Shown here one piece after another: positions 469 to 57,445 of a stretch of DNA of 64,000 bases. The DNA is from an uncultured Gammaproteobacteria bacterium (GTDB taxonomy: Bacteria > Patescibacteriota > Microgenomatia > Woykebacterales > RBG-16-39-9b): contig CAYHXX010000004.1 of NCBI GenBank assembly GCA_964360785.1, forward strand, positions 5,568 through 69,567, written 5' to 3'. The translations under genes were made by a program, and so were the position numbers. The notes under the pieces were generated by a model. That model was not told where the DNA came from and did no database searches. It saw nothing but the letters and a program-made list of their open reading frames with translations. Numbering within the stretch: the stretch's first letter is position 1; the number at the start of each line of letters is the position of its first letter.

Positions 469-481
469 ACTATCCTATAGA

Positions 482-510
482 CTTGACAACTTAATTCTAA
501 CCTGTTAAAA
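482..510 (+). promoter_or_regulatory. sigma70-like promoter TTGACA-17-TAAAAT driving the GC-rich unit 525-1170
   Basis: ttgaca at 482-487, 17-nt spacer, taaaat. Confidence 0.45.
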
Positions 511-1138
511 TTCTGCCGCTTCACTCAACAAAGTGTAGCTAGGTGTTCCAAAATTCCTAAACCTACTGTCCCTCAGGTTGCGGATGATGGAGTGCTGAAA
601 CAGCTTTGGTGATTGGCCGTTTATTTGATTTGGCCAAAATGCCAGAAAAGGTCAGACCCCGCTCTCCAACGTGAGGAGAGGGTAGACCACAGGAGGGACA
701 TCATGGTTACGGTACTGCTGTACCTTGCCATTGTCACCGGAGACCTGGGTTACGTGGAGGATGCTGTGCGACACGCTGTGTCGTGCGACGCTTGCCTTCC
801 GGAGCTCATGGTTTTCATCTTCGGCTTCTAAAGCCGGAGTGTGACACCGAGCCGCGGTAAAACAAGTTCTTCCTGCAAAACTCGTCTTGACGAGTAGCTA
901 TAGGAAGTGTCTTGGATCGGCTTGGGAACAGAAGGTGTAGGAAGTCGAGTCCGAAAGGGCGCTAGGCTTCTCAAACCAATCACCCGGAGGAACGCCAACC
1001 TCCGAAATGTCCAGATGTCCGCAAGGCAACCTGGGCAAAAAACTAAACGTGCGGTTTGGGCTCTGCTTGACGATGCGTATGCAAAGTCAGCCCACCCAAC
1101 CAAAGAAGGCCAAATCAATTGGCCTGCTTTGGAGGAGT

Positions 1139-5092: not shown

Positions 5093-5131
5093 CCCATAGC
5101 ATTTGACTTTTGAACCTAAATATGCTATTAT
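5093..5131 (+). promoter_or_regulatory. promoter module cccatag-N-TTGACT-17-TATTAT, near-identical copy at 43213-43251
   Basis: cccatagcatttgacttttgaacctaaatatgctattat matches cccatagtacttgacttttgaagctaaatatactataat at about 35/39. Confidence 0.55.
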
Positions 5132-5198
5132 ATACACATAAGCTAAAAACTTATCTCGGCAGAACAAGTGTTCTCTCGAGTAGCACACTGGAGGAGAA

Positions 5199-5501
5199 AT
5201 GTCGGGCACGATTTGGGGGCTCTACGGTCTCGGATTCTTCACCGGAATCTTCGTGGTGGTCTTCAACAAGGACCAGCACGGGTGGCTCTGGAAGTTCAGC
5301 TGCATCTTTCTGGTCGGGTGGATCCCAGAGCGGATCTACACCTGGGGGCGGGCATTGTTCGGGCGGAAGCATACCATGTCGATCATGGGCTTCCTAACCC
5401 TTACCTTCCTGCTCATCTTCTTCTTCCCGGTCAGCATCCTGGTCTACTGGATGGCTAACCGGGGGAGGAGAACGGCAACGACGGGACCAGGCACGCCGTA
5501 G
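5199..5501 (+). CDS. small membrane protein (about 3 TM), GC-rich island
   Basis: SD ggaggag 2 nt before ATG; hydrophobic segments; high GC3. Confidence 0.45.
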   Translation: MSGTIWGLYGLGFFTGIFVVVFNKDQHGWLWKFSCIFLVGWIPERIYTWGRALFGRKHTMSIMGFLTLTFLLIFFFPVSILVYWMANRGRRTATTGPGTP

Positions 5502-5698
5502 GCACAACTCCAGGTGCGGGGCGGTCGGAAGTAGTTTCATGCGCAAGCACGAAACCTACCCGACCACCCTAATCCTAACTTTTAGTTTGCGAATTAGTTT
5601 CAATCCGCCAGCCGGCGGAGAAGCTAGCTCGGAAGCTAAAACTTCTTTCCGATAGAACAAGTTCATCGGAATATCACGGGGGATAGAAAGGAAAGACA

Positions 5699-5881
5699 AT
5701 GAGGTATTTGTTTTGGGCCGTGGGTTACGGACTGATCATTGGGGTCGTAATGACCGTCATGTTCGTCCATGAGCACATGGGCTCTACTACCGAAGGTCTG
5801 GAATGGTTCGTCATGATGACAGTGAACGGATCGTTCTTCTTCGGCGTACCCTTTGCCCTGCTGACGGTTCGGGAGGGGTAG
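5699..5881 (+). CDS. small membrane protein (2 TM), GC-rich island
   Basis: SD aaggaaag before ATG; two hydrophobic helices. Confidence 0.35.
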   Translation: MRYLFWAVGYGLIIGVVMTVMFVHEHMGSTTEGLEWFVMMTVNGSFFFGVPFALLTVREG

Positions 5882-6070
5882 CTGAATCATAGTTTCGGGC
5901 ACAAGAGTCACCTCTGCAACGGAATAATTGGTGGGTGCCTATTCCAAAGCGAGTAATCGCTGAGGAAGAAAGCACCCGCCCAACAACCAACTCTTCGACA
6001 GATAGGCACAATGGTGCTATACTTTATGGCTATCTGCGGGGGAGTTGAATGGAGTCAAGGAGAGAATCGC

Positions 6071-6562
6071 ATGGATTGCACATTTACACGGGTCATGTTT
6101 GGTCTTCTCGTCGTCATTCTGGTCGGGAACGCGATCACCCTGAAGAACGTTAGCCGCTCGGTGGCGCCGCGCACAGACGAGGAGAAGCGGGAAGCTATCG
6201 AGAGGACCGTGAGTAACCCGGCCGTGAATGGTGTCTATGATCCTGACGTCGTCGTGTACGCCACGACGCAGCTTCAAGGGATCTACGGGGACATGGTCAA
6301 CTATCCGGATCGACCGGTTCCGGTCGATGAAGTTCTACTCTACCTGACCTACCTCGCTGAGGGGTCGATGAGTAGACCAGACGCAATCGACTTCTGTAGC
6401 CGTGTACGTCCGCTCTGGAGTGCGTCGCACAGAATTGGCGATTTGCTTTTTGGAAAAGAGGCAACTCAGAATCAGCAAGACCTGTTCAGTAGAATTGACA
6501 ACGCCGTCGGTCAGAAAGACAAAGATGGTGCTTGTCAGTCTACACAGGAGGTGAGCACGTGA
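6071..6562 (+). CDS. hypothetical TM-anchored protein, GC-rich island (ORF track 6011..6562; ATG at 6071 preferred)
   Basis: SD aaggagag 6 nt before atggattgc; N-terminal TM then soluble domain; terminator hairpin at 6593-6637. Confidence 0.4.
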   Translation: MDCTFTRVMFGLLVVILVGNAITLKNVSRSVAPRTDEEKREAIERTVSNPAVNGVYDPDVVVYATTQLQGIYGDMVNYPDRPVPVDEVLLYLTYLAEGSMSRPDAIDFCSRVRPLWSASHRIGDLLFGKEATQNQQDLFSRIDNAVGQKDKDGACQSTQEVST

Positions 6563-6660
6563 ACAACGTTCCCACCGCAACAGGCACTTCGTGGATGAAT
6601 CCCCCCGGATCCACGAAGTGCCGTAAGTTTTTTCCAAATATTGAAATTAAAATCGAATAG

Positions 6661-10239: not shown

Positions 10240-10281
10240 TTATAGGGTTGACAAATCCTTTTTTTGTGTTAGAATCCAAGC

Positions 10282-10551
10282 GTGGACGCTTGGATGCGCA
10301 CTTGTGTGTCGGAGCGGCCTGTCTTCTCTGCTACCCTGGTAACGGATCAGGTGTTGGTGGACTTTTCCGAGGAGGAGACTCTGCAGCTTGCTGTAGAGTA
10401 TCTGAATTGGGGTGAGTTCACGATCCTGATTTCAGTATCAGTGGTAGGAGAAGGCGGGTTGGTTGAAGTACCAGAACCACTTAGGGAGGAGCTGACGGAT
10501 TACTTCCGGACGCACCACCTTCGTGGGGTTGGGACCAAGACCGCGCTCTAG
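10282..10551 (+). CDS. hypothetical ORF in a GC-rich unit (weak; no SD)
   Basis: only long ORF between promoter ttgaca-17-tagaat (10246-10275) and terminator 10761-10792; transcript begins with a hairpin ccaagcgtggacgcttgg. Confidence 0.2.
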   Translation: MDAWMRTCVSERPVFSATLVTDQVLVDFSEEETLQLAVEYLNWGEFTILISVSVVGEGGLVEVPEPLREELTDYFRTHHLRGVGTKTAL

Positions 10552-10760
10552 GCCACCGGGGGTTTGATGGAATCCTTGTCGACAAATCTATCAACGCAGC
10601 CAGCGTGAGATAGTATCCATCCGGTTCTACTCAACCGTTTGTGGTATGCAAAGACCACGGAGAATGAGGGGAGTGTAGGGAGCGAAAGGAGAGTGCTATG
10701 TATAAAGCATACACCTGTCCCTACCTTAAGATTTTCAAACTTTGGAAAGCTTAAGAAGAG

Positions 10761-10792
10761 GAACGACCTAGAAATGGGTCGTTTTTCTTTTT
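10761..10792 (+). terminator. intrinsic terminator, repeated module copy 2
   Basis: aacgacctagaaatgggtcgtttttctttt. Confidence 0.6.
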
Positions 10793-17221: not shown

Positions 17222-17350
17222 ACCAAGTTAGTTGAAAACCCATAGTTACTCTGGTAAAATGCCTCAATCGGAAGGAGACCGCACAGGTTTCGCTCATGAA
17301 CACCTGTAGAAAGTGCTGACGGATGAAAGCCCAAACGGAGGCAACCCGCT

Positions 17351-23819: not shown

Positions 23820-24686
23820 ATGTCGATAGACGAAACGGTCGTAAGGCCGCAAGTTGCCCTTTTCATCGATCTGGAAAACATCCGCTACAGTTTCTTGAGC
23901 CAGTTCAAATATGAACCGGATTTCAAGTCACTTTTCGGTGTTGCCCGGGCGGAAGGTCCTGTCTCGGTCGCCTACGCCTACGCCGATTTTTCACGTCACC
24001 CTGAGGCGGTGCGTCGGCAACTGGAAGCGTTGGGGATCACCTGCCGTGACACCCCAGTGCGGGTTCAGCAATCCAACGGCGAGACTCGGGTCAAAAGTAC
24101 TGTAGACCCGCAAATGATGCTCGACATCTTAGAGACGGCGCTTGACCGGCCGCAGGTTAAGACCTTCATCGTTGGGACCGGGGACTCGGACTTTTTGCGC
24201 ATCGTGACGATGTTGCAAAACCGATTCGAGAAACGGGTCTTGGTAATCGGGGTGCCGGGAACCCTGAGCCAGGATCTTGCGGCAGCGGCTACAGACGTCA
24301 TAAACCTGGAGCCGGTTGTCATTACGGGTGACAACCCGATCGTCGGGGCGATCGTTCATCTAATGAGGACGAAAACACCGCCGGTGGGGTTCTGGACACT
24401 CCCGCAACTTGCCAAGTGGGCGAACCAGACCCATAATGGGGTTCCGGGAACGGATAGCGAAAGGTCGGCTGCTATCTCGTTCATGGTCCAGAACGGTTTA
24501 ATCAGGCAGGAGGTCCTGCCGGCCGAAGGCGAGCTAACCGAACGACGGGCCAGCAGTATTGATGAGGAGAACGAGCTGGTCAAAGAGATTCTCGCAGGCA
24601 GCACACCAAAACAGACACCCGGTCAAAGTCTTCTCGAGGCGTTCAGGGAGGCCGACTTGTCTGGAGAAAGTAACGCCAACAACTGA
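23820..24686 (+). CDS. NYN-domain (LabA-like) protein with C-terminal LOTUS/OST-HTH-like domain, GC-rich
   Basis: VALFIDLENI, TFIVGTGDSDFLRIV, RVLVIGV typical NYN core; C-terminal WTLPQLAKWAN..GLIRQE helix-rich domain. Confidence 0.55.
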   Translation: MSIDETVVRPQVALFIDLENIRYSFLSQFKYEPDFKSLFGVARAEGPVSVAYAYADFSRHPEAVRRQLEALGITCRDTPVRVQQSNGETRVKSTVDPQMMLDILETALDRPQVKTFIVGTGDSDFLRIVTMLQNRFEKRVLVIGVPGTLSQDLAAAATDVINLEPVVITGDNPIVGAIVHLMRTKTPPVGFWTLPQLAKWANQTHNGVPGTDSERSAAISFMVQNGLIRQEVLPAEGELTERRASSIDEENELVKEILAGSTPKQTPGQSLLEAFREADLSGESNANN

Positions 24687-24775
24687 ATAACAATAGAATA
24701 ATCACAACAAAGGGCTTTGCGGAAACGTAAAGCCCTCATCATTTTAAAAATTATTTGTTGCAAGGCCGGGCCTTG

Positions 24776-28275: not shown

Positions 28276-28872
28276 ATGCAAATCCCCAAAAGTGTAGCGG
28301 CGGTTATCGCTGAATTTGAAAAACTTCCTGGTATTGGGCCAAAGAGTGCCCAGAGGCTGACCTATTATTTACTTCACGCGCCCAAAGAATATGCTCACGC
28401 CCTCTCTTCTGCAATTTCCGAGCTGCGGGACAAGACAGTGCTTTGTAGCACTTGTTACAACGTTGCCGAAGCAGATCCTTGTGAAGTTTGCGCAAGTACA
28501 TCCCGTGACCGCTCGGTGATCATGGTAGTTGAGGAACCCCTTGACGCTTTGGCGATGGAGCGTTCAGGTTCTTTCAAAGGCATGTATCACGTTCTTCACG
28601 GAGTGATCGCGCCACTTGATAATATTGGTCCAGATGAGCTCTACCTCAAACAGCTTTTGCCGAGATTGAAGTCAGGCGAGGTTAACGAAGTGATTTTGGC
28701 GACCAATCCAAATATCGAAGGCGAGGCCACCGCAATGTATATCCAAAAACTACTTTCACCACTTGGGCTTCACATTACCCGGATCGCACGTGGGCTGCCC
28801 ACAGGAGCCGATCTGGAATATGCTGATGAAACTACTCTTTCGCGGGCAGTCGAGGGAAGAGTGGACTTTTAG
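28276..28872 (+). CDS. recR: recombination protein RecR
   Basis: HhH LPGIGPKSAQRL, C4 zinc finger CSTCYNVAEADPCEVC, Toprim. Confidence 0.9.
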   Translation: MQIPKSVAAVIAEFEKLPGIGPKSAQRLTYYLLHAPKEYAHALSSAISELRDKTVLCSTCYNVAEADPCEVCASTSRDRSVIMVVEEPLDALAMERSGSFKGMYHVLHGVIAPLDNIGPDELYLKQLLPRLKSGEVNEVILATNPNIEGEATAMYIQKLLSPLGLHITRIARGLPTGADLEYADETTLSRAVEGRVDF

Positions 28873-28962
28873 ATTTGACTTTCAAGTCCGCGAGAATGCA
28901 AACCTTCTTAGATTTGACTTTCAAGTCCGCGAGAATGCAAACCTTCTTAGATTTGACAAGGT
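28870..28962. repeat. 39-bp direct tandem repeat, about 2.4 copies, beginning at the recR stop codon
   Basis: tagatttgactttcaagtccgcgagaatgcaaaccttct repeated perfectly at 28870-28908 and 28909-28947 plus a partial third copy. Confidence 0.85.
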
Positions 28963-30868: not shown

Positions 30869-31011
30869 ACGACATTCTTGCCCGTTTGTTTCTTGAAATT
30901 CAACCTAAAAAAGAGTATATAGAAGTTAACACAATGCAACCGTCTGAAAGCCACCAGTGGTTGTGTTGACGTGCTGCCCGTTTTGTTAGTTGGATAAACC
31001 CGAAGCGTATT

Positions 31012-31620
31012 GGCGGGGGAACGCTATTGCAAGGGTGGTCTGGAAACCTGTGGCGGGGAGACACAGACCTTAAGGCTAACTAGGCACACGTCGGAACAGA
31101 AAGGGAAGGAGGTAGTGAGTAGAGACAATCGGAGTCTAATCACGAGGCAGGTGCAGATGGGTTTCACTTACCACATCGGCCTGCCTCACTTTTTTTGTTG
31201 TAACAGGCAATTTTCAAAAAAGTAATTATTGATTTTTTATTTTACTAGTACTATCGTTTATTTATCACATAGGGAAGGAGGTAGAGATATCGAGAGTTGG
31301 AAGTGGGGAGCGGCGTTTTGGCCAGGTGTCATAAGCCTGATCCGTCGAAAGAAGTGTACCTGGCCTCGGTTACCAGCAACCCCGCCGTTGGTTTTCCACT
31401 ATGCCGCTCCCTGCGTACCAGAAAGTTGAGAGTTCTCTGAGCAGACCGTTGAAAAGTCGAGAGTGCGAGGTCTCGGCTTTCCCTCAGCGTGTCAGCTCGG
31501 TGTTCTAGAAGACGGTCGCCCGAATGCACGTTCTACTTCCTCCTTTGAGAACGTATGCAGCGACCGTCTTCTCCTTCGGGCAGCCGGGATTCATGAAAAC
31601 CCACCCGCCACCAGGACATT
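31012..31620 (+). ncRNA. candidate structured ncRNA region (GC-rich, no convincing ORF); ends GGCGGGG...CCCGCCACCA
   Basis: 5' ggcggggg at 31012 complementary to cccgcc+acca at about 31605-31618; internal rho-independent terminator at about 31150-31200; very low protein-coding plausibility. Confidence 0.2.
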
Positions 31621-31785
31621 CCGTCCGGCTGCCCATCTTTTTTATATAAGCAGACTTGTATATTCAGAAATATATAGGAAGACCTGTATATTCAGAAATA
31701 TATCAAACTATTGCATTTTCTCCAAAAACAGGTATAATTTGATCTTAACGAGGCATCTTTTCATACCCCCTGAAGAGAACTATTT

Positions 31786-34189: not shown

Positions 34190-34264
34190 AATGGGTTCCA
34201 AGTTTAACATCGTTCTCGTTATTAGCCTCACCCTTATGGAGGGCGGCTCTGACGTTGACCGGTA
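34190..34264 (+). CDS. candidate 24-aa hydrophobic peptide MGSKFNIVLVISLTLMEGGSDVDR, near-leaderless
   Basis: promoter ttgaca(34153)-17/18-tagtat ends 8 nt before the ATG; terminator hairpin gacctcctaccacaggaggtttttt follows at 34294-34320. Confidence 0.2.
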
Positions 34265-34351
34265 AGTTACCTGGAACAACAACGAACGAGCTGACCTCCT
34301 ACCACAGGAGGTTTTTTCGTTTGTTGGAGCTCAAAGCCATCCGGAAGTGAG

Positions 34352-34855
34352 GTGGAAAGTTTCCACCGCCAGGCCAAGCAAGGAGGAATGGTAATGGCCG
34401 AAGGTAGTCTCAACGGGTTCAAGGGAGAGATCGTGCGGTTCCGGTTGCAAGATGTGCCAGAACCTGTGGTAGTCTGTTACGTCAAGAGGACTGGCCTTGC
34501 CGCGGTGTGGATCAAGGCGTTGGGACGTCACGACGCGGAGGTAGAGCTATCCGGCGCTGGCTTTACTGAGATCGAGGCCGCGACCAACGCTGTTCGGCAG
34601 CTGCTCGGTGAGGCTGACGGCAACCAGTTGAAAGTCTACCGAGCGGAGCCCAAGCGGGAGAAGCGCAGTGGCGTTAGCGTAGTTCAGTCGGCCATCTCCT
34701 ACGATGTCGGCGCCGAATACCGCGAGGAGTTCGGACAGGGGACTGGTGCCCACCGACTTGCCACCCAAGCTTATATCATGGCGCTCTTCACGGCGATCAA
34801 TAAGATCCACGTGAAGTTGGCGAACCGCGAGATGGTACCGGTAAGGACAGCATAG
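34352..34855 (+). CDS. hypothetical protein, GC-rich (likely start ATG 34394 after SD aaggagga)
   Basis: high GC3 ORF; no recognised motif. Confidence 0.4.
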   Translation: MESFHRQAKQGGMVMAEGSLNGFKGEIVRFRLQDVPEPVVVCYVKRTGLAAVWIKALGRHDAEVELSGAGFTEIEAATNAVRQLLGEADGNQLKVYRAEPKREKRSGVSVVQSAISYDVGAEYREEFGQGTGAHRLATQAYIMALFTAINKIHVKLANREMVPVRTA

Positions 34856-34916
34856 AAAGAAGAAAAAGAGATGGTCCTTCACGCCTCCGAACCGCATTGG
34901 ATCGGAGGCTTCTTTT

Positions 34917-36404
34917 TTGGTACAATTGAAGGTACTTAAAACAACCATGCCCAGGTACTCAAGCCTCAAGCCTAATTTTCAAAAAGGATTCACGTTTTTG
35001 CACAGCGAAAAGGCAGAACGAGTGCTAAAATTGTTTTTGCAAAAAGCAAAAACCAGCACTGGATTTACACTTTCGGAGGTTCTGATAGCTTCTGCGATTA
35101 TCGCGATTATCGGTGTGTCCATAATGAGCACCGTCGCCCTTTTTCTCAAGTTTTCGGCTGATGCACGCGGGCAAATCCAAGCCCAAAATCTCGCTCATCA
35201 GAAAATCGAATTTATCCGCAACATGCCTTATGACGACGTAGCCACAGTAGCAGGGGCGATCTACCCACCGGGAAACATTCCGGATAATGAAGACATCACG
35301 GTCGACAATCAAGTTTATAAAGTTCAGACACTGATAAACTACGTTGATGACCCCTTTGATGGGGATGTTGGGGGGACAATAGTTGGAAAACCAGTGGATA
35401 TTTATCCCTATGACTACAAAAAGATCAGTATAAAAATTCGGGATAAGAATAATTCCAAAATATTGGCTCAGACTACAACAACAATGTCGGCCAAGGCTGC
35501 TGAAACTGCAACCAATACGGGAATTTTATCCTTGCGAGTGCAGAATTCCCAGGGGAATCCTGTAGCAGGAGCAGTTGTTAATGTTACCAACCCGACTCCA
35601 GTTCCGCCGGTCAATATCAATACATTTACTGATGTTTCCGGACTAGTTTTGATACCGTCGCTTCCACCAAGTTCAAACAATGAGTATCATGTTACGGTGA
35701 GTTTAAGTGGTTACAACAGCGACTCTACCAACCCAGCTTTTGCTCCCAACAACCTTAGCCCAGTGAAGCCAGACTTCAATATTCTAGCGCAGCAAATAAC
35801 GCCACTAACGTTGGAAATAGATCTTGTGGGTAGCATGCAAATAACCGCAAGAGATACTGCTGGAGCAGTCATGACTGGTCTAAACCTGAGCGTGAAAGGG
35901 GATAAATTGACTTATGCTTCTCCAGATACATACAAGTTTAGTCAAACTGCCGCAACTGACGGCAGTGGTGTGGTAAATTTGAGCAATCTCGAGTGGGATA
36001 GCTATAGTATCGCTGTGCCCAGTGGTTACTACATTGTTTCAAGTTCGCCTTATCAGAAAGTTAGCGTCAGTGCGGGTCAGGGTATCAATGTAAGTTTAGT
36101 GGTTACAAACAATAGTAACTATCCGACTGTAGCCAGCACCATGCCAAGTGCGGGAGTGAATAACTCGACCTTAGATTTCAACATTACCGGTACAAATCTA
36201 GTTTCGGGAACAACCGTGCTCTTGCGTCTGGCTGGGCAGCCTGATATCAGTGCAACCGGAGTTATTAGTGCCAGTGGAGATACAGAATTAACGGGCACAT
36301 TTGATTTAACCGGAAAACAATCAGGGATTTGGGATTTGATAGTTACAGATCCGAGTAGCCGGGTTGTGACGCAAACTGGCGGTTTTAGCATCAGCGCACC
36401 CTAA
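34917..36404 (+). CDS. type IV pilin-like protein with long leader
   Basis: class III signal KTSTG|FTLSEVLIASAIIAIIG (E at +5) preceded by a leader containing QKGFTF decoy motif. Confidence 0.6.
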   Translation: MVQLKVLKTTMPRYSSLKPNFQKGFTFLHSEKAERVLKLFLQKAKTSTGFTLSEVLIASAIIAIIGVSIMSTVALFLKFSADARGQIQAQNLAHQKIEFIRNMPYDDVATVAGAIYPPGNIPDNEDITVDNQVYKVQTLINYVDDPFDGDVGGTIVGKPVDIYPYDYKKISIKIRDKNNSKILAQTTTTMSAKAAETATNTGILSLRVQNSQGNPVAGAVVNVTNPTPVPPVNINTFTDVSGLVLIPSLPPSSNNEYHVTVSLSGYNSDSTNPAFAPNNLSPVKPDFNILAQQITPLTLEIDLVGSMQITARDTAGAVMTGLNLSVKGDKLTYASPDTYKFSQTAATDGSGVVNLSNLEWDSYSIAVPSGYYIVSSSPYQKVSVSAGQGINVSLVVTNNSNYPTVASTMPSAGVNNSTLDFNITGTNLVSGTTVLLRLAGQPDISATGVISASGDTELTGTFDLTGKQSGIWDLIVTDPSSRVVTQTGGFSISAP

Positions 36405-36406
36405 AT

Positions 36407-37186
36407 ATGACAAGTGCTAAGGAATACATAAGAGAAAACAGTCCCGTACAAGAGCGAGGTTTTACGTTTTTACCTCGCAAAAAGGCAGAGCCTTTGTTAA
36501 AATCTTCAAACAAGGGATTTACGTTTTCACGAAGTGAAAAGGCAGAGCCTTTGTTAAAATCTTCAAACAAGGGATTTACGTTTTCACGAAGTGAAAAGGC
36601 AGAGCCTTTGTTAAAATCTTCAAACAAAGGCTTTACCTTGATTGAAATTTTGGTTGCAATGGCAGCCGGATCAATTATCTTAATCGTAGTTGCTCAGTTA
36701 TTTGTCAACGGTTTATTGTACAATCTAATCGGTTTTAATAGCTTTAACTCCCAGGCTGATGCGATTGCGGTACTCAATCGGGTTGCAAAAGAAATTCGTC
36801 AGGGTCCAGCTGTTGTAGTTGCTAATGATCAAAGTATAACGATACTCGAGTATCTAAATATCACTGATGACGCTCCCTACCAAGTCCGTTTCTATCTCAA
36901 TGGTGCCAATTTTATTCGCGGGCAGATTCCACCAACGGGTTCAGGTCCGAGCTACACCTACAACCCCGCTAGTGAAACTTTTAAGACGCTTGGTACAGCT
37001 ATACAAAATGGGGCAACCCCCATATTTACCTATTATGATCAGTATGGAAATCAATTGAGTAGTCCAATTATTACTGGAAACATTACTTTAGTTAAAGTGA
37101 CGTTAAATTTTGGGGAGACAAAACTGCGGACGGCTTTCACCGCCACGACTCAAGCACAACTGCGATTTAAAAAAACTAATTTATGA
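36407..37186 (+). CDS. type IV pilin/pseudopilin with about 70-aa repeat-containing leader
   Basis: NKG|FTLIEILVAMAAGSIILIV prepilin peptidase site; leader has 3 x KAEPLLKSSNKGFTFSRSE. Confidence 0.7.
   Translation: MTSAKEYIRENSPVQERGFTFLPRKKAEPLLKSSNKGFTFSRSEKAEPLLKSSNKGFTFSRSEKAEPLLKSSNKGFTLIEILVAMAAGSIILIVVAQLFVNGLLYNLIGFNSFNSQADAIAVLNRVAKEIRQGPAVVVANDQSITILEYLNITDDAPYQVRFYLNGANFIRGQIPPTGSGPSYTYNPASETFKTLGTAIQNGATPIFTYYDQYGNQLSSPIITGNITLVKVTLNFGETKLRTAFTATTQAQLRFKKTNL
36483..36640. repeat. 57-bp perfect tandem repeat (about 2.8 copies) inside the pilin leader coding region
   Basis: aggcagagcctttgttaaaatcttcaaacaagggatttacgttttcacgaagtgaaa x2 identical + partial; each unit holds hairpins aaaggc-agag-gccttt and ttttcac-gaa-gtgaaaa. 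Confidence 0.85.
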
Positions 37187-38838
37187 TACTGACTAGGTTG
37201 TTAAAAAATACAAAACAAAGAGGATTTACGGGTTCCCGCAGGATAAAGGCAAAACCGTTGTTTGAAAATTCTAACAAAGGTTTTATCTTACTTGGTGCGG
37301 TTCTAATCTTGGCTGTAGTCACTGTGATGATCGCGGTAATATTTTCCTTAGTACTACTTTCACTTACCAAATCAGATCGTAACAGCCGCCAGATATCAGT
37401 ATTAGATATTTCTGAAGCAGGTATTAATTACTATCTTTGGCATCTTTCGCACAACTCAACTGATTATTGTGATGATACTGCTTGTCCGCCTGGGATCGGG
37501 CCTTTCGGTCCCTATGAACACAGCTTCACCAATAGCAGCGGTGAGGTGATTGGTACTTACACCCTTTGGATTGCACCGCCTGGTATAGCTGAAGGTGGAA
37601 AAGTCACTCTTTGTCATACGCCGCCTGATCCTGACCAAACTATTACAGTTGCCATTTCGGCTGTTCAAGCTCATCTTGATCATGGTGACACAATTGGAGA
37701 ATGTGGAGGTGGGGTTACTCCTGGAAGCAATGTGGTTACAGTTGAGTCTCGAGGCGATATAACCGGCGGCAATGAAAACCGTACCATAGTGGCAGAGCTT
37801 GGTATTCCGTCCTTTGCCAATTACTCAATTGTTGCTGATGATACAGTCAACCATTTGCGAATTGGGGCAGGCACAGAAACTTTTGGTCCAATCCACAACA
37901 ACGGCGGAGTACGGTTTGATGGGATAGCGCATGCAATTGTGACTAGTTCAATGGCTAGCTATGATGATCCGGATCACGATGATGTTGACTCACCGGAACA
38001 TGCCTGGCACTCAGATATTATTCAGGAAAGTGGCGTCCATACTCATCAAGCCGATCCAAATAGTGTTTTTCTCGCTGGGCGGCAATTTCCTGTCCCGCCA
38101 GTCAGTTTTTCAGCGATATCAACTGACCTACAGAACCTAAGGACCCTGGGACAAGTTGCTGGACAGGGTGTTTATTACGGCAGTTCGGGAAGTCTCGGCT
38201 ACCATATCGTACTTAAAACCAACGATACGTTTGCCATTTATCGTGTGACGGGAGTGGGCAACAACTGTAGTGGTGTACCAAGAGAAAACATTACCAACGA
38301 GGTGCTCATTACCAATAGGAATTTTCCTAGTAACGGTGTTATTTTTATCGAGGACAAACTTTGGCTTGATGGGAAAATAAATAGTGCTCAGCTTACCATT
38401 GCTGCGGCGAGGATCGGAGCTACGCCCGCCCAGGAAAAATCGGTGATTATCAACAATGATCTGGAGTATACGAATTACGATGGTTCCGACAAACTTGGTG
38501 TGGTAGCGCAGAAAAATGTAACAGTTGGTTATAATAGCGAGGGGGATTTTAGTGGTAGCTCTGATAACCAAGAGCTAAGGATTGATGCAGCCATGATTGC
38601 GCAGAATGGTCGAATTGGTCGAAATTACTATGGAGCTGGTTGTGGTGGAAACTACGTTCGCAACAACATAACAGTTTATGGCTCTCTTGCTACCCATTTT
38701 CGCTACGGTTTTGCGTATACAGATGGTACAGGCTATCAAAACCGAAATTTACTGTACGACCCTTATCTGACATTGGTACCACCGCCATTTTTTCCGACAA
38801 CTGGAAGTTATTCAATCCTTTCCTGGAAAGAGAAGTAG
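37183..38838 (+). CDS. large pilin-like/minor pilin or tip-associated protein (551 aa)
   Basis: leader KAKPLFENSNKG|FILLGAVLILAVV homologous to the neighbouring pilin leaders (no E+5); ATGA overlap with upstream pilin. Confidence 0.45.
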   Translation: MILTRLLKNTKQRGFTGSRRIKAKPLFENSNKGFILLGAVLILAVVTVMIAVIFSLVLLSLTKSDRNSRQISVLDISEAGINYYLWHLSHNSTDYCDDTACPPGIGPFGPYEHSFTNSSGEVIGTYTLWIAPPGIAEGGKVTLCHTPPDPDQTITVAISAVQAHLDHGDTIGECGGGVTPGSNVVTVESRGDITGGNENRTIVAELGIPSFANYSIVADDTVNHLRIGAGTETFGPIHNNGGVRFDGIAHAIVTSSMASYDDPDHDDVDSPEHAWHSDIIQESGVHTHQADPNSVFLAGRQFPVPPVSFSAISTDLQNLRTLGQVAGQGVYYGSSGSLGYHIVLKTNDTFAIYRVTGVGNNCSGVPRENITNEVLITNRNFPSNGVIFIEDKLWLDGKINSAQLTIAAARIGATPAQEKSVIINNDLEYTNYDGSDKLGVVAQKNVTVGYNSEGDFSGSSDNQELRIDAAMIAQNGRIGRNYYGAGCGGNYVRNNITVYGSLATHFRYGFAYTDGTGYQNRNLLYDPYLTLVPPPFFPTTGSYSILSWKEK

Positions 38839-41408: not shown

Positions 41409-41493
41409 ATATCCCAACAATTTGAAGACCTAGAGTATAATGGCTGCAATAGCAGGAAGAATTCATCTGCTGAAAAGTTAGTGGGAGGGTGCG

Positions 41494-41736
41494 ATGCGAG
41501 TGGTTACCGCCGACTCTCTGAACACCCTTCGGGTTGGGCAGAGAGCCAGATACACTGGGATGGTGAGGCGAAGAGAGCTTACGGCGCTCGTTCGTGTCAA
41601 CGGGGTCTACAGCCGTCACGCGGGTTTGCGCATCGAAGTGATCAAGAAGCAGAAGCCGGCGCGCAGCTTCAAGATTGGAGATACCTTCACCATCGCTTTC
41701 GGCAAGCACGAGACGCTAGCGGTGGAGGACGACTAA
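41494..41736 (+). CDS. small hypothetical protein 1 of GC-rich four-ORF operon
   Basis: SD gggaggg 4 nt before ATG; GC3-rich. Confidence 0.35.
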   Translation: MRVVTADSLNTLRVGQRARYTGMVRRRELTALVRVNGVYSRHAGLRIEVIKKQKPARSFKIGDTFTIAFGKHETLAVEDD

Positions 41737-41774
41737 TCGGCAAGGAAGTAGCTGGCGAAAAGCCAGGAGGTGTT

Positions 41775-41963
41775 ATGCCCAGAATGATCATTGAAATCGA
41801 GTCGGAAGACGGGATCGCGATCGACGAGTTGGTTGCGGCGGCTGCCCTTTCTAAGTTGATCCTGGGTCTTGTTGATCCCGGGTCAATCCCCGCCGAACCC
41901 AAGCGTATTCCTGTTCCGTTTGGTCGGGGCCAGCTCTTTCTGAGCTGGACCTTCGAGGCTTAA
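41775..41963 (+). CDS. small hypothetical protein 2 (62 aa)
   Basis: preceded by hairpin-SD module tagctggcgaaaagccaggagg. Confidence 0.35.
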   Translation: MPRMIIEIESEDGIAIDELVAAAALSKLILGLVDPGSIPAEPKRIPVPFGRGQLFLSWTFEA

Positions 41964-42004
41964 CCACCAATACGCAGTTGGCGAAAAGCCAGGAGGAGAG
42001 AGTC

Positions 42005-42304
42005 GTGTACGTTAAAGTTGTCAAAGTCCCAGCGGGGGAGGCGCCTTTGCATGTTCGGCAAGCTTGGGTGGGGACTGTTTTCCAAGCTGTAGGACCCAGG
42101 GAGTATTGGGAAGAGGGGATTGTCACCGGAAAAGACAATCCTGCTCGCCTTGGCTACGCCGTACCTCAAGAGCTTGCGGTGGAAGCACTCGAGCGAAGGA
42201 ACCCAGCAGCGGCAGACTGGTTCCGAGAACATTTACGCTACCATTCCAACAACCTAATCTTCGGAGCGGACGAGGTCGTGGAAATCCACAACGAAGGAAT
42301 GTAG
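42005..42304 (+). CDS. small hypothetical protein 3 (GTG start)
   Basis: preceded by agttggcgaaaagccaggagg, 9 nt to GTG. Confidence 0.3.
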   Translation: MYVKVVKVPAGEAPLHVRQAWVGTVFQAVGPREYWEEGIVTGKDNPARLGYAVPQELAVEALERRNPAAADWFREHLRYHSNNLIFGADEVVEIHNEGM

Positions 42305-42327
42305 CTGGCGAAGGCCAAGGAGGAGAC

Positions 42328-42684
42328 ATGCACAGTTACGGTATCGATCACGGTCCGGATGAGGTTGCCCAGCCGCAACCCATGTCGAACGGCTTCTACG
42401 TTGAGGTGTACAAGCTCAATGCTGTTCGTTTCAGCATAGCTCATCCCGCTCTCAACAATCGCCAAGCTCGGGTCGGTATCTTCGTAGTGATCGACGAAGT
42501 CACCCAGAGCTGGGGTGAAGACGGAAGAGGAGATCGAGGAATCGCCTTTACTGGCTACCTCAAGCCGGAAAAGGGTGATCAGTCTCTGCACTGGGTGAGG
42601 GGCGTTTACAGCTTCAGCCGTCACGGTGGTAGTATCGAGACGGAATCTGAGATCGAGCTCAGGATCGCTCCGGTCGCCGCCTGA
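42328..42684 (+). CDS. small hypothetical protein 4 (118 aa)
   Basis: preceded by tagctggcgaaggccaaggagg; terminator 42737-42777 follows. Confidence 0.35.
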   Translation: MHSYGIDHGPDEVAQPQPMSNGFYVEVYKLNAVRFSIAHPALNNRQARVGIFVVIDEVTQSWGEDGRGDRGIAFTGYLKPEKGDQSLHWVRGVYSFSRHGGSIETESEIELRIAPVAA

Positions 42685-42849
42685 TCAAGAACATACCTAA
42701 CGCGAGAGTGGAGAGAAGATCAATTCCTGTCCACAAGGGTCGTCGCATCATGCACGACCCTTTCGCGTTTTAATTTTCAAAAAACTTGTCCCGATTGAAT
42801 CGGGATTTGCTTATCTTAGGTCCTGAAATTAAAATAAAAGAAAAAGCTC

Positions 42850-43197: not shown

Positions 43198-43212
43198 TTC
43201 CCCAACAAAAAA

Positions 43213-43251
43213 CCCATAGTACTTGACTTTTGAAGCTAAATATACTATAAT
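43213..43251 (+). promoter_or_regulatory. promoter module, second copy of the 5093-5131 element (TTGACT-17-TATAAT)
   Basis: cccatagtacttgacttttgaagctaaatatactataat. Confidence 0.55.
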
Positions 43252-43286
43252 AATATCAATCAGGTGTAGCGTGAAAGGATAGCACC

Positions 43287-43487
43287 ATGATTGCGTTGTT
43301 CGTCATAATGGCGATTCCGTTCTGGTTTCTGGTGGTGATCCGAGTAGTTCTACTTACGATCCTCGCCATCTTCCTCATCGCCATCTTCATTACATTGTCC
43401 CAAATCGGGAGAAGTGGTGAGAATGGGATTACCGCAATGCAGAAGAGACTGAAGCGGGAGGCGAAAGAGAAGGAGGCGAAGAAGTAG
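43287..43487 (+). CDS. small membrane protein with K/E-rich tail, GC-rich cassette
   Basis: SD aaagga before ATG; two hydrophobic helices; terminator module 43605-43634. Confidence 0.4.
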   Translation: MIALFVIMAIPFWFLVVIRVVLLTILAIFLIAIFITLSQIGRSGENGITAMQKRLKREAKEKEAKK

Positions 43488-43604
43488 GAGAATAGGTTAC
43501 ACGGATGGGAGCGGTCGGCGAAAGCCAGACTGAACCGTAGCGAACCACAAGTTTGCTCTCTTCCCGGCCCTTAAGAAAATCAGATTGGTTTGTTTAAGAA
43601 GAGA

Positions 43605-43634
43605 AACGACTCAGCAATGGGTCGTTTTTCTTTG
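43605..43634 (+). terminator. intrinsic terminator, repeated module copy 3
   Basis: aacgactcagcaatgggtcgtttttctttg. Confidence 0.6.
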
Positions 43635-43677
43635 GGAAAATTTGCTTATCTACGGAGGGAAAAGTTAAAATCAAAAT

Positions 43678-46613: not shown

Positions 46614-46828
46614 TAACTCAATTATAGCAGAAATTCTTTAGCCCAAGTTTCCGCTAGTTCGATTTCACTTTTTCCCAACAAAAAACCCCGATTTAGTCGG
46701 GGTTACTTGTCCTAAGAAAACCTCCGCTAGATCAGCGGATTGGAGATTTGCTTGGGGATCGAGGCGTAACTGGCGGTTACGTCTCGGTGGATCTCTCATA
46801 ACTTTTTCCTTTCCTGGTTGCGGACTGG

Positions 46829-47149
46829 TTACTGCTGATTCACTAAGGTGCGCAGCTTGTCAGCGTACAGGAAGCTGTAGATCCCCACCATCGCTGTTGC
46901 GATGAGTGGCGGACAGAACAATTCGAAGTACACGTTCTTATCCCCGAGGACCAAGGGCCAAGGGGCGGCTAACATTGACCCAGCCAGGATGAGTAACCAG
47001 ACCAGTGGATGGAGCTTTGCTGCCCACTCTCTGGCCGGTGAGAACTTGAAGTCCTTGTCGAGAAAGGCGATGCACATGTAGATCACGAAAAACACCGAGA
47101 TCTCGAAACCCAAAAGGGCCAGCACCGTGTTGTGTACCAAATCCTCCAT
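46829..47149 (-). CDS. hypothetical membrane protein
   Basis: three hydrophobic segments; terminator hairpin ccccgatttagtcgggg downstream on the minus strand. Confidence 0.4.
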   Translation of the reverse strand: MEDLVHNTVLALLGFEISVFFVIYMCIAFLDKDFKFSPAREWAAKLHPLVWLLILAGSMLAAPWPLVLGDKNVYFELFCPPLIATAMVGIYSFLYADKLRTLVNQQ

Positions 47150-47172
47150 AATTCCTCCTCGGCTTTCGCCGT

Positions 47173-47448
47173 TTAGAGCCCTTCCATTCGATATTGCGGG
47201 CTCGGTCCCAATTCCTTCTTTTCTACAGCGTCAGGCGGTGGATCCACCAACTTCCAGCGTGTATCACCGCCAGCGTAATCGCTGTCCTGGTCAACGTAAC
47301 CTCGTGGGTCAAGTGCATTGTTCAGCGATTGGACCACACCGTTCACACTGAGGCATGTTCGGGTTGCAATCTCTCGCGCAGTGCCCGCTCCTCCCAGCTC
47401 ATGCAGAGCTTGGAGTATGGTCCTTTGGATGGGCTTTAGGCTTGGCAT
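47173..47448 (-). CDS. winged-helix DNA-binding protein, GC-rich
   Basis: RTILQALHELGGAGTAREIATRTCLSVNGVVQSLNNAL HTH. Confidence 0.45.
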   Translation of the reverse strand: MPSLKPIQRTILQALHELGGAGTAREIATRTCLSVNGVVQSLNNALDPRGYVDQDSDYAGGDTRWKLVDPPPDAVEKKELGPSPQYRMEGL

Positions 47449-47598
47449 GGCCGCTCCTTACCGAATGCCTGGTTTAGCTTATCAACATTATACTTCGGTT
47501 ATACAAATTTTGAGAAATAAGTCGGGGAAAAAGAGAAGAGCCCCCGCCGTAATGAGGGAGGGGCTCTTGGTTGTGCCGTCACGTCGAGGAGCATTGGG

Positions 47599-48108
47599 TT
47601 AGCTTGCGGCCGCGTCGTTGCTCGTGGCGTCCGCCTGTTCCTCGCTGATCGGCAGGATGTCAGGCGAGTTCTTGTCCTCCTGAATCTCCTTCATCCTGTC
47701 CTTGCAGATTCCTGCCACCGCGCTCCAGATCCACCTGGAGATCACCTCGTCGAGGTGCGATAAGAGGCCGGAAACCGCGGCAGCGAGCTCATCCTGCACG
47801 AAGCCGCCGGCGAAGCGGGCGTCTCCGCCTTCGAGGATCCACGGCGCCTCATTGACGATATAGCTGGACGATTGGCCCGTGCGATGACATAGTTCGGCCT
47901 TCGCGCGGGCGATCTCGTCGTACTTGTGCGCCCAGCTCTCCTTGGGGTCCACGGCGATAGTGGTCTCGTAGAGATGAAACGACGGTTCGATCACCACGAT
48001 GTGGAGGTTCCTCCTGCCGCCGCCGAGCTCCGCGAGGAGCGCGTCGATCGAAGGGCGAACCAAGGCGACGGCCTGGTCGAAGACTTCCTGGGTAACCAGA
48101 AACGACAT
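47599..48108 (-). CDS. hypothetical protein, GC-rich (possibly GlcG/DUF336-like)
   Basis: high GC3; terminator hairpin gagcccctccctcattacggcgggggctc on minus at about 47527-47570. Confidence 0.35.
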   Translation of the reverse strand: MSFLVTQEVFDQAVALVRPSIDALLAELGGGRRNLHIVVIEPSFHLYETTIAVDPKESWAHKYDEIARAKAELCHRTGQSSSYIVNEAPWILEGGDARFAGGFVQDELAAAVSGLLSHLDEVISRWIWSAVAGICKDRMKEIQEDKNSPDILPISEEQADATSNDAAAS

Positions 48109-48306
48109 GGGTTTACTCTCCCTTTTCTAACTCAACCTGTCCAAACTTATGGACAAGGATTTACGAGTAAAATCATGCTTGATTATAGCAGAAAAAGAGA
48201 AGTATGTAAATACTATAAGATAGTTACCGGCCTCATTACTCTTTCTTCCTATTTTTATCAGATGATAGGAGAACTATTGGTTCCGCACTAAGAAGTGTTA
48301 ATTGAA

Positions 48307-55732: not shown

Positions 55733-56788
55733 ATGTTGAAAGTCGGAATTGTCGGGCTCCCAAACGTGGGTAAGTCTACCTTATTTAATGCTTTACTCAA
55801 AAAACAAGTCGCGCAAGCAGCAAACTATCCATTTACTACAATCGATCCAAATATTGGCGTAGTCGAAGTTCCCGACGAGCGTCTGCAAAAGTTGGCCGAG
55901 GTGGTCAAAACTGAAAAAATTATTCCGGCAGCTGTCGAGTTTGTCGATATTGCTGGTTTGGTTAAGGGTGCAGCTGCTGGTGAAGGTCTTGGAAACAAAT
56001 TCCTTTCCCATATTCGTGAAGTCGATGCTATTGCCCATGTGGTTAGAGAATTCGAGGATTCTGATGTACTGCGAAGTGATAGCTCGACTGATGCAAAGAG
56101 TGATGTTGAAACGATTAACACGGAGCTGATATTGGCTGATCTGGAAACGATCGAGAAGTTAGTTTTTGGTGCTAAGAAGGATGTCAAAGCCAAGGAAAAA
56201 AGTGCTGAGAAAAAATTGGAAGCCTACCTTAAACTTAAAGGAGGGTTGGAAAAGGGAACATTGGCCAAAGATATTGAGATTGATCCCGAACTAGCGGTTG
56301 GTTTACCGCTGATAACTATCAAGCCCACGATTTACGTTATTAACGTTGCTGAGTCCGAGTTGAAACAGGCAATCAATTTGGAATTAGAACCAAAGGTTGT
56401 TATTTGTGCCAAAGTCGAAGCTGAGCTAGTTGAATTAAATCCTGATGAGCAAAAAGATTACTTGAAAGAGTTAGGATTACATGAATCAGGATTGGAAAGG
56501 TTGATTAGCGAAAGTTACAAGCTACTCGGCTTGGTCACTTACTTCACTGCCGGTGAGAAGGAAGTTCGTGCCTGGACTATACATATTGATACAAAAGCAC
56601 CTCAAGCAGCGGGTGTAATCCACACAGATTTTGAAAAAGGCTTTATTAAAGCGGAGGTGATTAACTGGGAAAAGCTTGTTACTGTTGGTGGTTGGAATCA
56701 AGCAAGGGAAAAAGGTTTAGTTCGCCTTGAAGGTAAAGACTACCTCTTCCAAGACGGGGACACGACCATTTTCAAATTCAACGTTTAA
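55733..56788 (+). CDS. ychF: ribosome-binding ATPase YchF
   Basis: GIVGLPNVGKSTLFNAL, TGS domain C-terminus. Confidence 0.9.
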   Translation: MLKVGIVGLPNVGKSTLFNALLKKQVAQAANYPFTTIDPNIGVVEVPDERLQKLAEVVKTEKIIPAAVEFVDIAGLVKGAAAGEGLGNKFLSHIREVDAIAHVVREFEDSDVLRSDSSTDAKSDVETINTELILADLETIEKLVFGAKKDVKAKEKSAEKKLEAYLKLKGGLEKGTLAKDIEIDPELAVGLPLITIKPTIYVINVAESELKQAINLELEPKVVICAKVEAELVELNPDEQKDYLKELGLHESGLERLISESYKLLGLVTYFTAGEKEVRAWTIHIDTKAPQAAGVIHTDFEKGFIKAEVINWEKLVTVGGWNQAREKGLVRLEGKDYLFQDGDTTIFKFNV

Positions 56789-56875
56789 AAAAAGAGCCGA
56801 CTGCTTCGAATGTGGAAGCAGCCGGTTTTGCGTTGGCATCGTGCGAACTCGTGTCAGCAGCCGTGACGTAGGGTA

Positions 56876-57280
56876 TTACGAGTGGATGGGACGCATTTGC
56901 CGATGGTAAGCCAGACGTCGTTTCACTTCATTAAGTTTCTCTTCCTCCCGTTGACGGCGTTTCGCATCACGCACGAGGCGCGCGATTCGAGAGCGCAGGA
57001 CTGATGGACGCTTCTTCGCTGGCGTTCCCCGCATCTTCAAGCGCAGCCGGCGCAGTTGGTTGACGTCGATGCCACCGTTGCTCGTGATGCAGAGGTTAAC
57101 TTGCCGTCGGGTGTTGCGGTGGCTCTTGTGTGAACCGTCCGACGGTTGGAGGATTCGGTGCAGGTACCCTGTCACCGTTTCACGTCCTTCCTCGAGAAGC
57201 AGGTGACCCGCTCTTTCGAGAGCGATGGCTCGGGGAACACAATTTCCCGCATCCTCCCACGCAGGGATATTTAGTTCCAT
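56876..57280 (-). CDS. hypothetical basic protein, GC-rich
   Basis: R/K-rich C-terminus; high GC3. Confidence 0.3.
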   Translation of the reverse strand: MELNIPAWEDAGNCVPRAIALERAGHLLLEEGRETVTGYLHRILQPSDGSHKSHRNTRRQVNLCITSNGGIDVNQLRRLRLKMRGTPAKKRPSVLRSRIARLVRDAKRRQREEEKLNEVKRRLAYHRQMRPIHS

Positions 57281-57445
57281 GGTGGACTCTCCCTTCGGTA
57301 ATGACCTGATTGCTCGCTTACTTCTGGCCTATAATATAAAACTAATTGAGCTAAATTGCAAATCCAGTTTGTAGGTGGAGAAAAATTGGGCCGAGTGCAG
57401 GGTGTGCAATCGGCCCGTGACGGACTATTCGGTTGGTTTGGCGTA

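Follow-up and report, generated by a model that had tools for sequence, protein, structure and literature searches.

The window analysed here is the whole stretch of 64,000 nucleotides taken from contig CAYHXX010000004.1 (NCBI GenBank assembly GCA_964360785.1); it lies within a contig of 79,740 bp whose source sample is the 0.1-um filter fraction of Hainich groundwater well H52, and the overall GC content is 43.7%. It carries two similar promoter-like segments, one downstream of topA and the other in the gap between a cupin gene and a RidA gene. Both are intergenic, and each lies on the same strand as an open reading frame (ORF) for a small membrane protein and upstream of its Shine-Dalgarno site. 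An earlier note on this DNA had described the pair as a promoter module duplicated 38 kb apart, at 5093-5131 and 43213-43251, and had read it as a sign of common origin or of a modular mobile promoter element. The coordinates of both segments proved exact. The features of the two loci are as follows, GC3 being the GC fraction at third codon positions and UTR an untranslated region.

5093-5132, plus strand: predicted promoter copy 1, of near-consensus geometry, with hexamers and TGC invariant in the orthologous contigs L035 and L047
5093-5102, plus strand: upstream element of copy 1, CCCATAGCAT
5103-5108, plus strand: -35 of copy 1, TTGACT
5109-5125, plus strand: spacer of copy 1, 17 nt, with an extended -10 TG at 5123-5124
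5126-5131, plus strand: -10 of copy 1, TATTAT
5133-5198, plus strand: predicted 5'UTR of the ORF1 transcript, with the Shine-Dalgarno site GGAGGAG at 5190-5196 and a start placed near A5138 by the geometry of the -10
5199-5501, plus strand: ORF1, a 100-aa small membrane protein (GC 0.58, GC3 0.85) from a rare five-member family
5502-6640, plus strand: rest of the island downstream of topA, with the same gene order in L047
5502-5600, plus strand: conserved non-coding stretch
5699-5881, plus strand: 60-aa membrane ORF
6011-6562, plus strand: 183-aa ORF
about 6583-6635, plus strand: terminator-like hairpin with a T-run
43213-43252, plus strand: predicted promoter copy 2, of near-consensus geometry
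43213-43222, plus strand: upstream element of copy 2, CCCATAGTAC
43223-43228, plus strand: -35 of copy 2, TTGACT
43229-43245, plus strand: spacer of copy 2, 17 nt, with the TG lost (TAC)
43246-43251, plus strand: -10 of copy 2, TATAAT
43253-43286, plus strand: predicted short 5'UTR of ORF2, with the Shine-Dalgarno site AAAGGA at 43274-43279 and a start placed near A43258 by geometry
43287-43487, plus strand: ORF2, an orphan 66-aa hydrophobic protein with a K/R/E tail (GC3 0.70)
43570-43635, plus strand: 3' module ending the ORF2 cassette, with paralogues at 1100-1169 and 10725-10792
43570-43598, plus strand: hairpin 1 of this 3' module
43599-43635, plus strand: A-rich stretch, terminator hairpin and T-tail of this 3' module

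By every sequence criterion that can be tested, both segments are near-consensus promoters of the sigma-70/sigma-A type. The -35 hexamer agrees with TTGACA at 5/6 positions in both copies, the spacer is 17 bp in both, and the -10 agrees with TATAAT at 5/6 positions in copy 1 (TATTAT) and at 6/6 in copy 2, for a hexamer score of 10-11/12. In copy 1 the sequence TATGC precedes TATTAT and corresponds to the -16 TRTG or extended -10 TGn, a motif name of Gram-positive promoters, while copy 2 has TATAC and no TG. Upstream of the -35, each copy possesses a 10-nt element composed of CCCATAG and three further nucleotides. Copy 1 lies 131 nt past the topA stop codon, and the end of its -10 is 67 nt from the ATG at 5199; copy 2 starts 15 nt past the cupin stop codon (43197), with 35 nt from the end of its -10 to the ATG at 43287. 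Relative to the start codons, the module spans -106 to -67 in copy 1 and -74 to -35 in copy 2. The arrangement TTGACT / 17 nt / TATTAT or TATAAT is as the earlier note gave it; its term 'perfect' suits only the -10 of copy 2, copy 1 having TATTAT with an extended -10 TG, and its distance of 60-70 bp to the ORF is correct for copy 1 and wrong for copy 2.

In an ungapped alignment, copy 1 (5093-5131, CCCATAGCATTTGACTTTTGAACCTAAATATGCTATTAT) and copy 2 (43213-43251, CCCATAGTACTTGACTTTTGAAGCTAAATATACTATAAT) are identical at 34/39 positions, or 35/40 (88%) when the next A is counted; the figure of about 35/39 given before exceeds the true count by one. The five mismatches fall at module positions 8, 10, 23, 32 and 37. 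The limits of the similarity are abrupt, starting at 5093 and stopping after A5132, and an ungapped comparison of 120 nt per side found the flanks at background identity only. When all of the GC-rich islands were compared all-versus-all by sensitive BLAST, this 40-bp segment was the sole DNA that the two loci shared. A degenerate pattern of the module had 0 expected matches, as estimated from 100 shuffles. As a null set, we took the 62 TTGNNN-17-TANNNT sites (1,891 pairs) of a 77.5-kb contig, reconstructed by adding 8.8 kb and 4.7 kb beyond the window. The two copies agree at 23/27 non-hexamer positions, against a null mode of 7 and at most 17 in unrelated pairs; one other pair, located beyond the window and apparently formed by repeated genes, also scores 23/27. 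The 10 nt ahead of the -35 belong to no promoter consensus, yet 8/10 positions are identical, and the spacers of other strong window promoters are unrelated to that of the module. The likeness extends past the -35 and -10 hexamers and ends at 40 bp. Even with 10 substitutions allowed, no copies beyond these two were found in the 77.5-kb contig. Because of this null of promoter-like pairs and the comparison with orthologues given below, a common origin of the two promoters, beyond what consensus alone would produce, is supported by the sequences, and this part of the earlier claim is borne out.

Two contigs from relatives carry the copy 1 locus in synteny: L035 (from ERZ27254873), a 751-bp contig in which the 3' end of topA shows 88% nucleotide identity to the window, and L047 (from SRR31809889), a 21-kb contig in which topA shows 87% amino acid identity. 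The promoter of L035, aactataggTTGACATTCGAACCTAAATATGCTATTAT, matches copy 1 at 27/29 positions from the -35 to the -10, and the two loci have the 5'UTR, ORF1 and 3' flank in common as well. In L047 the promoter is cctataatacTTGACTTTTAGCCCCAAAAGTGCTATTAT, and the order is dprA, topA, an ORF1 homologue (48% identical) and ORFs of 60, 169 and 185 aa. Copy 1, L035 and L047 all have the same -35, TGC and -10, and this invariance of hexamers and TGC supports a promoter function. The spacer of L047, TTTAGCCCCAAAAGTGC, differs from that of copy 1 at 6/17 positions, whereas the spacer of copy 2 differs at 2/17 and is of the window-lineage type, unlike that of L047. Because the L047 spacer was free to change, recent common ancestry accounts better than constraint for the 15/17 spacer identity of the two copies. 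The orthologues also share the start-site-proximal sequence and the 5'UTR (ATAYACRTAAG...CTAAWAACTT...GCAYACTGGAGGA), corresponding to 5133-5198, while copy 2 has nothing in common with them beyond one base after the -10. Since copy 2 is without this 5'UTR, the copied unit would be the promoter alone. It also follows from the synteny with L035 and L047 that the copy 1 promoter and the island to which it belongs are of long standing, keep their position and are not mobile.

Judged by these relatives, copy 1 is ancestral at its locus downstream of topA, and the pattern points to a promoter-only duplication within the window lineage. When the mismatches were polarised with L047 and L035, positions 8 and 10, in the upstream element, were assigned to the copy 1 branch, and position 23 in the spacer, position 32, at which the TG is destroyed, and position 37, at which the -10 is perfected, were assigned to the copy 2 branch.

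The explanation that we favour, with moderate confidence, is that one 40-bp housekeeping promoter is present here in two paralogous copies, copy 1 being ancestral and copy 2 a promoter-only copy. In each copy, region 4 of sigma would read TTGACT and region 2 would read TATTAT or TATAAT across the 17-bp spacer, with transcription starting about 7 nt past the -10, near 5138 and 43258. Each transcript would then carry a small GC3-rich ORF for a membrane protein together with its Shine-Dalgarno site. The first would begin at about 5138, take in ORF1 and probably also the 60-aa and 183-aa ORFs, and end at the hairpin near 6583-6635. Copy 2 may have been born by short-patch recombination or conversion that brought the promoter to the head of the 66-aa orphan gene, so that two unrelated genes would receive the same strong and probably constitutive transcription signal. 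Drift after copying would have altered two upstream-element bases in copy 1, and in copy 2 it would have removed the TG and perfected TATAAT, two changes that plausibly keep promoter strength similar. Reuse of regulatory modules recurs in this genome, the terminator module of the ORF2 cassette being present in two other islands as well.

Several points weigh against this explanation. First, the polarisation of the branches rests on five sites within 40 bp. Second, no relative spanning the cupin-RidA gap was found, the cupin homologues not being syntenic, and the age of copy 2 and the direction of copying would be directly testable only with such relatives. Third, promoter activity and start sites are deduced from sequence and not from transcripts. 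Fourth, the copy search covers about 77.5 kb of the genome, and extra copies, or a third copy that served as the source, may lie elsewhere. Fifth, a 21-nt core of the module, TTGACTTTTGAANCTAAATAT, recurs in several unrelated contigs with a -10 at the right spacing, and one marine phage promoter is 28/29 identical to the copy 2 core.

The alternative that survives best, and that we nevertheless consider unlikely, is a shared operator, in which one transcription factor binds across both 40-bp copies and co-regulates both membrane proteins, its contacts being the upstream CCCATAG element and/or a dyad, ATAGYA...TRCTAT, that brackets the -35 and the -10. The dyad has 7-bp inverted arms in copy 1 (ATAGCAT / ATGCTAT) and 6-bp arms in copy 2 (ATAGTA / TACTAT), and relative to L047 the changes at position 8 of copy 1 and position 32 of copy 2 each create a Watson-Crick match; the chance of such a compensating pair among five changes is ~0.02, a rough estimate made post hoc. 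Moreover, ATAG stands 1-3 nt upstream of a -35-like TTKAC at 8 sites against 2.4 expected, and 5/8 of these sites head GC-rich islands (477, 5096, 10242, 43216 and, on the minus strand, 48216). However, this ATAG pattern was also defined post hoc, and it stands at no fixed distance (1-3 nt) from the -35. The L047 spacer has diverged freely, and the arms beyond ATAG/CTAT are not kept in either relative: they match at 5/7 positions in L047 and are shifted by 2 nt in L035, so that only ATAG...CTAT persists, and its CTAT is mostly the TAT of the -10 with a C before it. With a distance of about 26 bp between their centres, the arms lie on opposite faces of the helix. A hairpin or cruciform formed by the dyad in DNA was rejected as energetically negligible, at -2.6 kcal/mol for copy 1 and -0.6 kcal/mol for copy 2, no better than shuffles.

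Independent convergence, in which both segments drifted to the same optimal strong promoter (TTGACT, a T-rich then A-rich spacer, the -16 TRTG and the -10), appears distinctly improbable. Its basis is the recurrence of the 21-nt core, which we scanned for in GTDB genomes, JGI metagenomes and IMG/VR. The core was found in a WWE3 metagenome-assembled genome (L002), ahead of a glycosyltransferase-like gene, in the marine phage contigs L021, L029-L031 and L033, and in the contigs L009, L011, L020, L022 and L027; a Firmicutes-like contig has sibling promoters ending in AAATATGATATAAT. This recurrence in unrelated genomes and phages implies that much of the module is a generic strong-promoter consensus. 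However, the matches come from terabase-scale collections searched with 20 fixed bases, and we estimate that a similar number would be expected in AT-rich DNA. Also against convergence are the 8/10 identity of the non-consensus upstream element, the unrelated spacers of the other strong promoters in the window, the different spacer of the orthologous promoter in L047 and the lack of any other promoter pair near this score in the 77.5 kb. Horizontal spread of the core was rejected too, its scatter over unrelated taxa and phages being read as near-consensus coincidence.

Some of these core matches have features of their own. In L009, L011 and L020 the 21-nt core is followed by a short hydrophobic ORF (26-72 aa) and a terminator, and the ORFs in L009 and L011 are GC-richer than their contigs; this may be coincidental, or near-consensus promoters may more generally head small membrane peptides. 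The marine group (L021, L023, L025, L028-L031 and L033) has TTGACTTTTGAAGCTAAATATGCTATAAT, which is 28/29 identical to the copy 2 core and which, in marine phages, precedes a region of long inverted repeats that looks like structured RNA. The Logan contig SRR32696699_94863 (L038, 1021-1044) runs into the Illumina adapter AGATCGGAAGAGCACACGTCTGA directly behind CCCATAGTA and stops there; the module is thus cut short by an assembly artefact.

Mobility, with the promoter as the outward end of a miniature element or with the whole promoter-ORF-terminator cassette as the mobile unit, is very improbable. It would suit the way in which the ORF2 cassette fills the 480-nt cupin-RidA gap, with a promoter shared with one island and a terminator shared with two others, as well as the orphan status and foreign-looking GC3 of ORF2, and promoter-bearing repeats such as Correia, ERIC and REPIN are known (PMC3575422). 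Against it, the module has neither terminal inverted repeats nor target duplications, there are only two copies in 77.5 kb, no transposase or integrase lies nearby, and the cassette is present in all five of the population contigs recovered. The copy 1 island lies in synteny in a relative with an ORF1 of just 48% identity and is high in GC3 there too, which marks it as old and stable. Thus, the earlier note was right about common origin and wrong about mobility, copy 1 being fixed in its syntenic place. Finally, chance resemblance of two AT-rich intergenic segments, for which it can be said that 12/39 positions are consensus hexamers and nothing more, is excluded by the null distributions (0 matches expected; 23/27 against at most 17).

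ORF1 is a real gene, because its dN/dS (the ratio of nonsynonymous to synonymous substitution rates) is 0.38 against the L035 orthologue, which is 68% identical, because its GC3 of 0.85 stands against a GC1 of 0.44 and a GC2 of 0.47, and because it belongs to a five-member family. Three of the relatives came from an exhaustive HMMER search of 1.84 billion representatives and share the core VVIFNxDxHGWxWKxxCIFLxGW. The hydropathy profile shows two to three hydrophobic stretches, and the tail carries 3 Arg. The 5'UTR at 5133-5198 has no significant fold. ORF1 and the 60-aa and 183-aa ORFs probably form one transcription unit. The gene calls of the ENA source contig omit ORF1, which was called only on a Logan contig. 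The non-coding stretch at 5502-5600 (3340-3432 in L047; 716-751 in L035) is about 85-90% identical in a relative with an ORF1 protein of just 48% identity; a GC-rich stem could enclose its conserved TTCATGCGCAAGCACGAA hairpin, with nearly all pairs invariant, a structure that is only putative.

The predicted product of ORF2 has a hydrophobic N-terminus of 43 residues and a charged tail with 8 K/R and 3 D/E. No homologue was found in 5.8 billion clusters, and no gene call covers ORF2, on the source contig or elsewhere; its coding status rests on periodicity, the Shine-Dalgarno site and hydrophobicity. Its predicted transcript, from about 43258 to the terminator at 43605-43635, would be monocistronic, about 380 nt long and unusually well folded (z = -4.5). 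Exact look-ups of RidA returned the same population only, with the cassette in 5/5 of the contigs recovered. The earlier note had described the two downstream genes as GC-rich small membrane-protein ORFs that are unrelated to each other. Both are indeed hydrophobic, with GC3 values of 0.85 and 0.70 against 0.33-0.44 in neighbouring housekeeping genes, and no mutual similarity was detected (BLASTP E = 6.5), nor any shared DNA downstream of the promoters. As to the 'basic C-terminal tail' attributed to both, that of ORF1 carries 3 Arg, and that of ORF2 is mixed.

The third promoter that the earlier note had grouped with the pair has the following position.

17232-17260, plus strand: TTGAAA-17-TAAAAT, a promoter-like site that has CCCATAGT within the spacer and does not belong to the pair

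The geometry makes a promoter plausible here, and CCCATAGT is present as claimed, at 17239-17246. However, it lies within the spacer, in a different register from the module, and the match is no better than chance: CCCATAG is present 5 times, with 4.1 expected, and the 12-mer common to this site and the flank of copy 2 arises in 44% of simulated windows. Family membership is therefore not upheld.

Codon composition in the window is bimodal, with dispersed small orphan ORFs at GC3 0.58-0.85 and housekeeping genes, including those for ribosomal S6 and S18, at 0.29-0.49. The orphan ORFs are gathered in about ten dispersed islands:

561-1160: island
5141-6480: island, downstream of topA
10281-10720: island
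23821-24700: island
30921-31660: island
34221-34920: island
41421-42780: island
43287-43560: island, with ORF2
46721-48200, minus strand: island
56781-57820, minus strand: island

The syntenic island of L047 is GC3-rich as well (0.68-0.75 vs 0.47), and since the same contrast is found there, it is persistent and not a signature of fresh transfer. Searches of Pfam and PHROGs returned no match for ORF1 or the island proteins other than a NYN domain at 23820-24686; at 34352-34855 there is a sub-threshold match to LeuA_dimer (E 0.002, 18.5 bits against a cut-off of 24.9). Wider homology between islands was rejected, as BLAST of the islands showed nothing in common apart from the promoter and terminator modules. 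The same module of about 65 nt closes three transcription units, at 1100-1169, 10725-10792 and 43570-43635. The sequence of its hairpin 1 differs and the pairing is kept (13 pairs, 100% paired, 5 changed on both sides); there follow AGAAGAG, an invariant terminator hairpin (AACGACC...GGTCGTT) and a T-run. Pairing between the A-rich stretch and the T-tail is possible, as in a bidirectional terminator, and the module has no Rfam match.

A further likeness concerns the island promoters. YYATAG stands 1-3 nt upstream of the -35 at 477-511 (+), 10242-10275 (+), 48216-48182 (-) and both copies of the module, and sites 477 and 48216 share the longer AACTATCYTATAG-NN-TTKACA. YYATAG may serve as an upstream promoter element specific to the lineage, or as a site to which a factor binds. 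A wider picture, which we regard as improbable, is that the pair is the most conspicuous piece of a larger system, in which this lineage, probably a candidate-phyla groundwater one judging by its 0.1-um source and the names of some cupin homologues, keeps dispersed GC3-rich orphans, mostly genes for small membrane proteins, on interchangeable host-type parts, namely a strong ATAG-marked promoter and a two-hairpin terminator, with ATAG/CCCATAG as a dedicated factor site and the copying of parts plugging in new or acquired ORFs.

Other repeats were observed in the window. The 15-mer CCCAACAAAAAACCC at 43201-43215 lies directly before copy 2, overlaps its start and occurs again at 46674-46688, where it is found, on the opposite strand, at the T-tail of the terminator closing the minus-strand island 46721-48200; the match is marginal, with a BLAST E of 0.004 among islands and an exact match of such length in just 1% of simulated windows (with a query beginning 2 nt inside the 15-mer). 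Within the island 41421-42780, three junctions of stop codon, hairpin and Shine-Dalgarno site (GTAGCTGGCGAAAAGCCAGGAGG) lie between short ORFs, at 41748-41782, 41974-42008 and 42301-42335. A 39-nt unit, TTAGATTTGACTTTCAAGTCCGCGAGAATGCAAACCTTC, forms a perfect tandem duplication at 28869-28946. A repeat of about 57 nt at 34983-37289, with three tandem copies at 36455-36639 and distant ones in the ORFs 34917-36404 and 37183-38838, is probably a repeated protein motif.

Expression is known to be rewired by promoter-only duplication, though detailed accounts are rare. With two syntenic relatives, the ancestral copy can be named here and the copied unit limited to 40 bp, reaching from the upstream element to one base beyond the -10. 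The pair gives a first sequence-level view of a possible strong promoter in an uncultivated ultra-small groundwater bacterium, and it suggests that ORF1 and the un-annotated ORF2 are strongly transcribed; ORF2 merits annotation, and the practical consequence is small. The promoter pair is real, ordinary in kind and of modest interest, and the GC3-rich islands, the terminator module and the ATAG element are more curious.

A close likeness in architecture is to the Gram-positive extended sigma-A promoter, reportedly described by Voskuil & Chambliss in 1998 as a -35 TTGACA, 17 bp, a -16 TRTG/TGn and TATAAT. Copy 1 has TTGACT, 17 bp and TATGC-TATTAT, and copy 2 has the perfect TATAAT; the CCCATAG/ATAG upstream element of the module is outside that consensus. 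We know of no experimental work on promoters in this candidate-phyla lineage.

Other classes of elements were compared with the two cassettes. As in type I toxin-antitoxin systems, both ORFs are small and hydrophobic, and at 100 and 66 aa they are longer than most type I toxins; for an antisense RNA, the ORF2 cassette offers one weak minus-strand promoter site (43275-43247, 9/12), with no minus-strand terminator and no Rfam match. An integron gene cassette was rejected: the cassettes are dispersed and have their own promoters, the terminator-pair 3' module is without a GTTRRRY core, and no integrase was found. Structured RNA was rejected likewise, with nothing relevant in Rfam (gathering, E<=1) and no tRNAs; the strong 3-base periodicity of the GC-rich segments and the dN/dS of ORF1 indicate that these segments are coding. 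A Rickettsia sRNA47 match of Rfam at 62154-62269 (-), inside a protease gene (28 bits vs a gathering of 60, E 0.002), is almost certainly due to chance. For elements of the MITE (miniature inverted-repeat transposable element) or IS (insertion sequence) type, the flanks are unrelated and neither copy has direct repeats or a stable hairpin. Correia, ERIC and REPIN are short intergenic repeats able to supply promoters to neighbouring genes (PMC3575422); their marks are a high copy number, target duplications and terminal inverted repeats or hairpins, and the module shows none of these. As far as the promoter capture cases mentioned in PMC3575422 go, in which silent or acquired genes are switched on, the module resembles them in placing a resident promoter before a gene of foreign-looking composition; those cases use IS elements or kilobase tandem duplications, whereas the unit copied here is 40 bp long and the copies lie 38 kb apart.

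The nearest known system is that of the putative mobile promoters (PMPs) of Matus-Garcia, Nijveen & van Passel (2012, PMC3575422), which are families of similar upstream sequences before non-homologous genes, mostly pairs of about 92% identity, of unknown mechanism and not tied to known mobile elements. They are defined by >=80% identity over >=50 nt in the -150 to -50 window. The module shares with them the likeness within one genome upstream of non-homologous genes with unlike coding regions, its identity is 87-88%, and ORF1 and ORF2 are non-paralogous by the BLASTP result given above. However, the match is only 40 nt long and copy 2 lies at -74 to -35, so that the module is a short example of promoter reuse and not a formal PMP. 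Unlike the PMPs of that study, it has orthologous loci that show which copy is ancestral.

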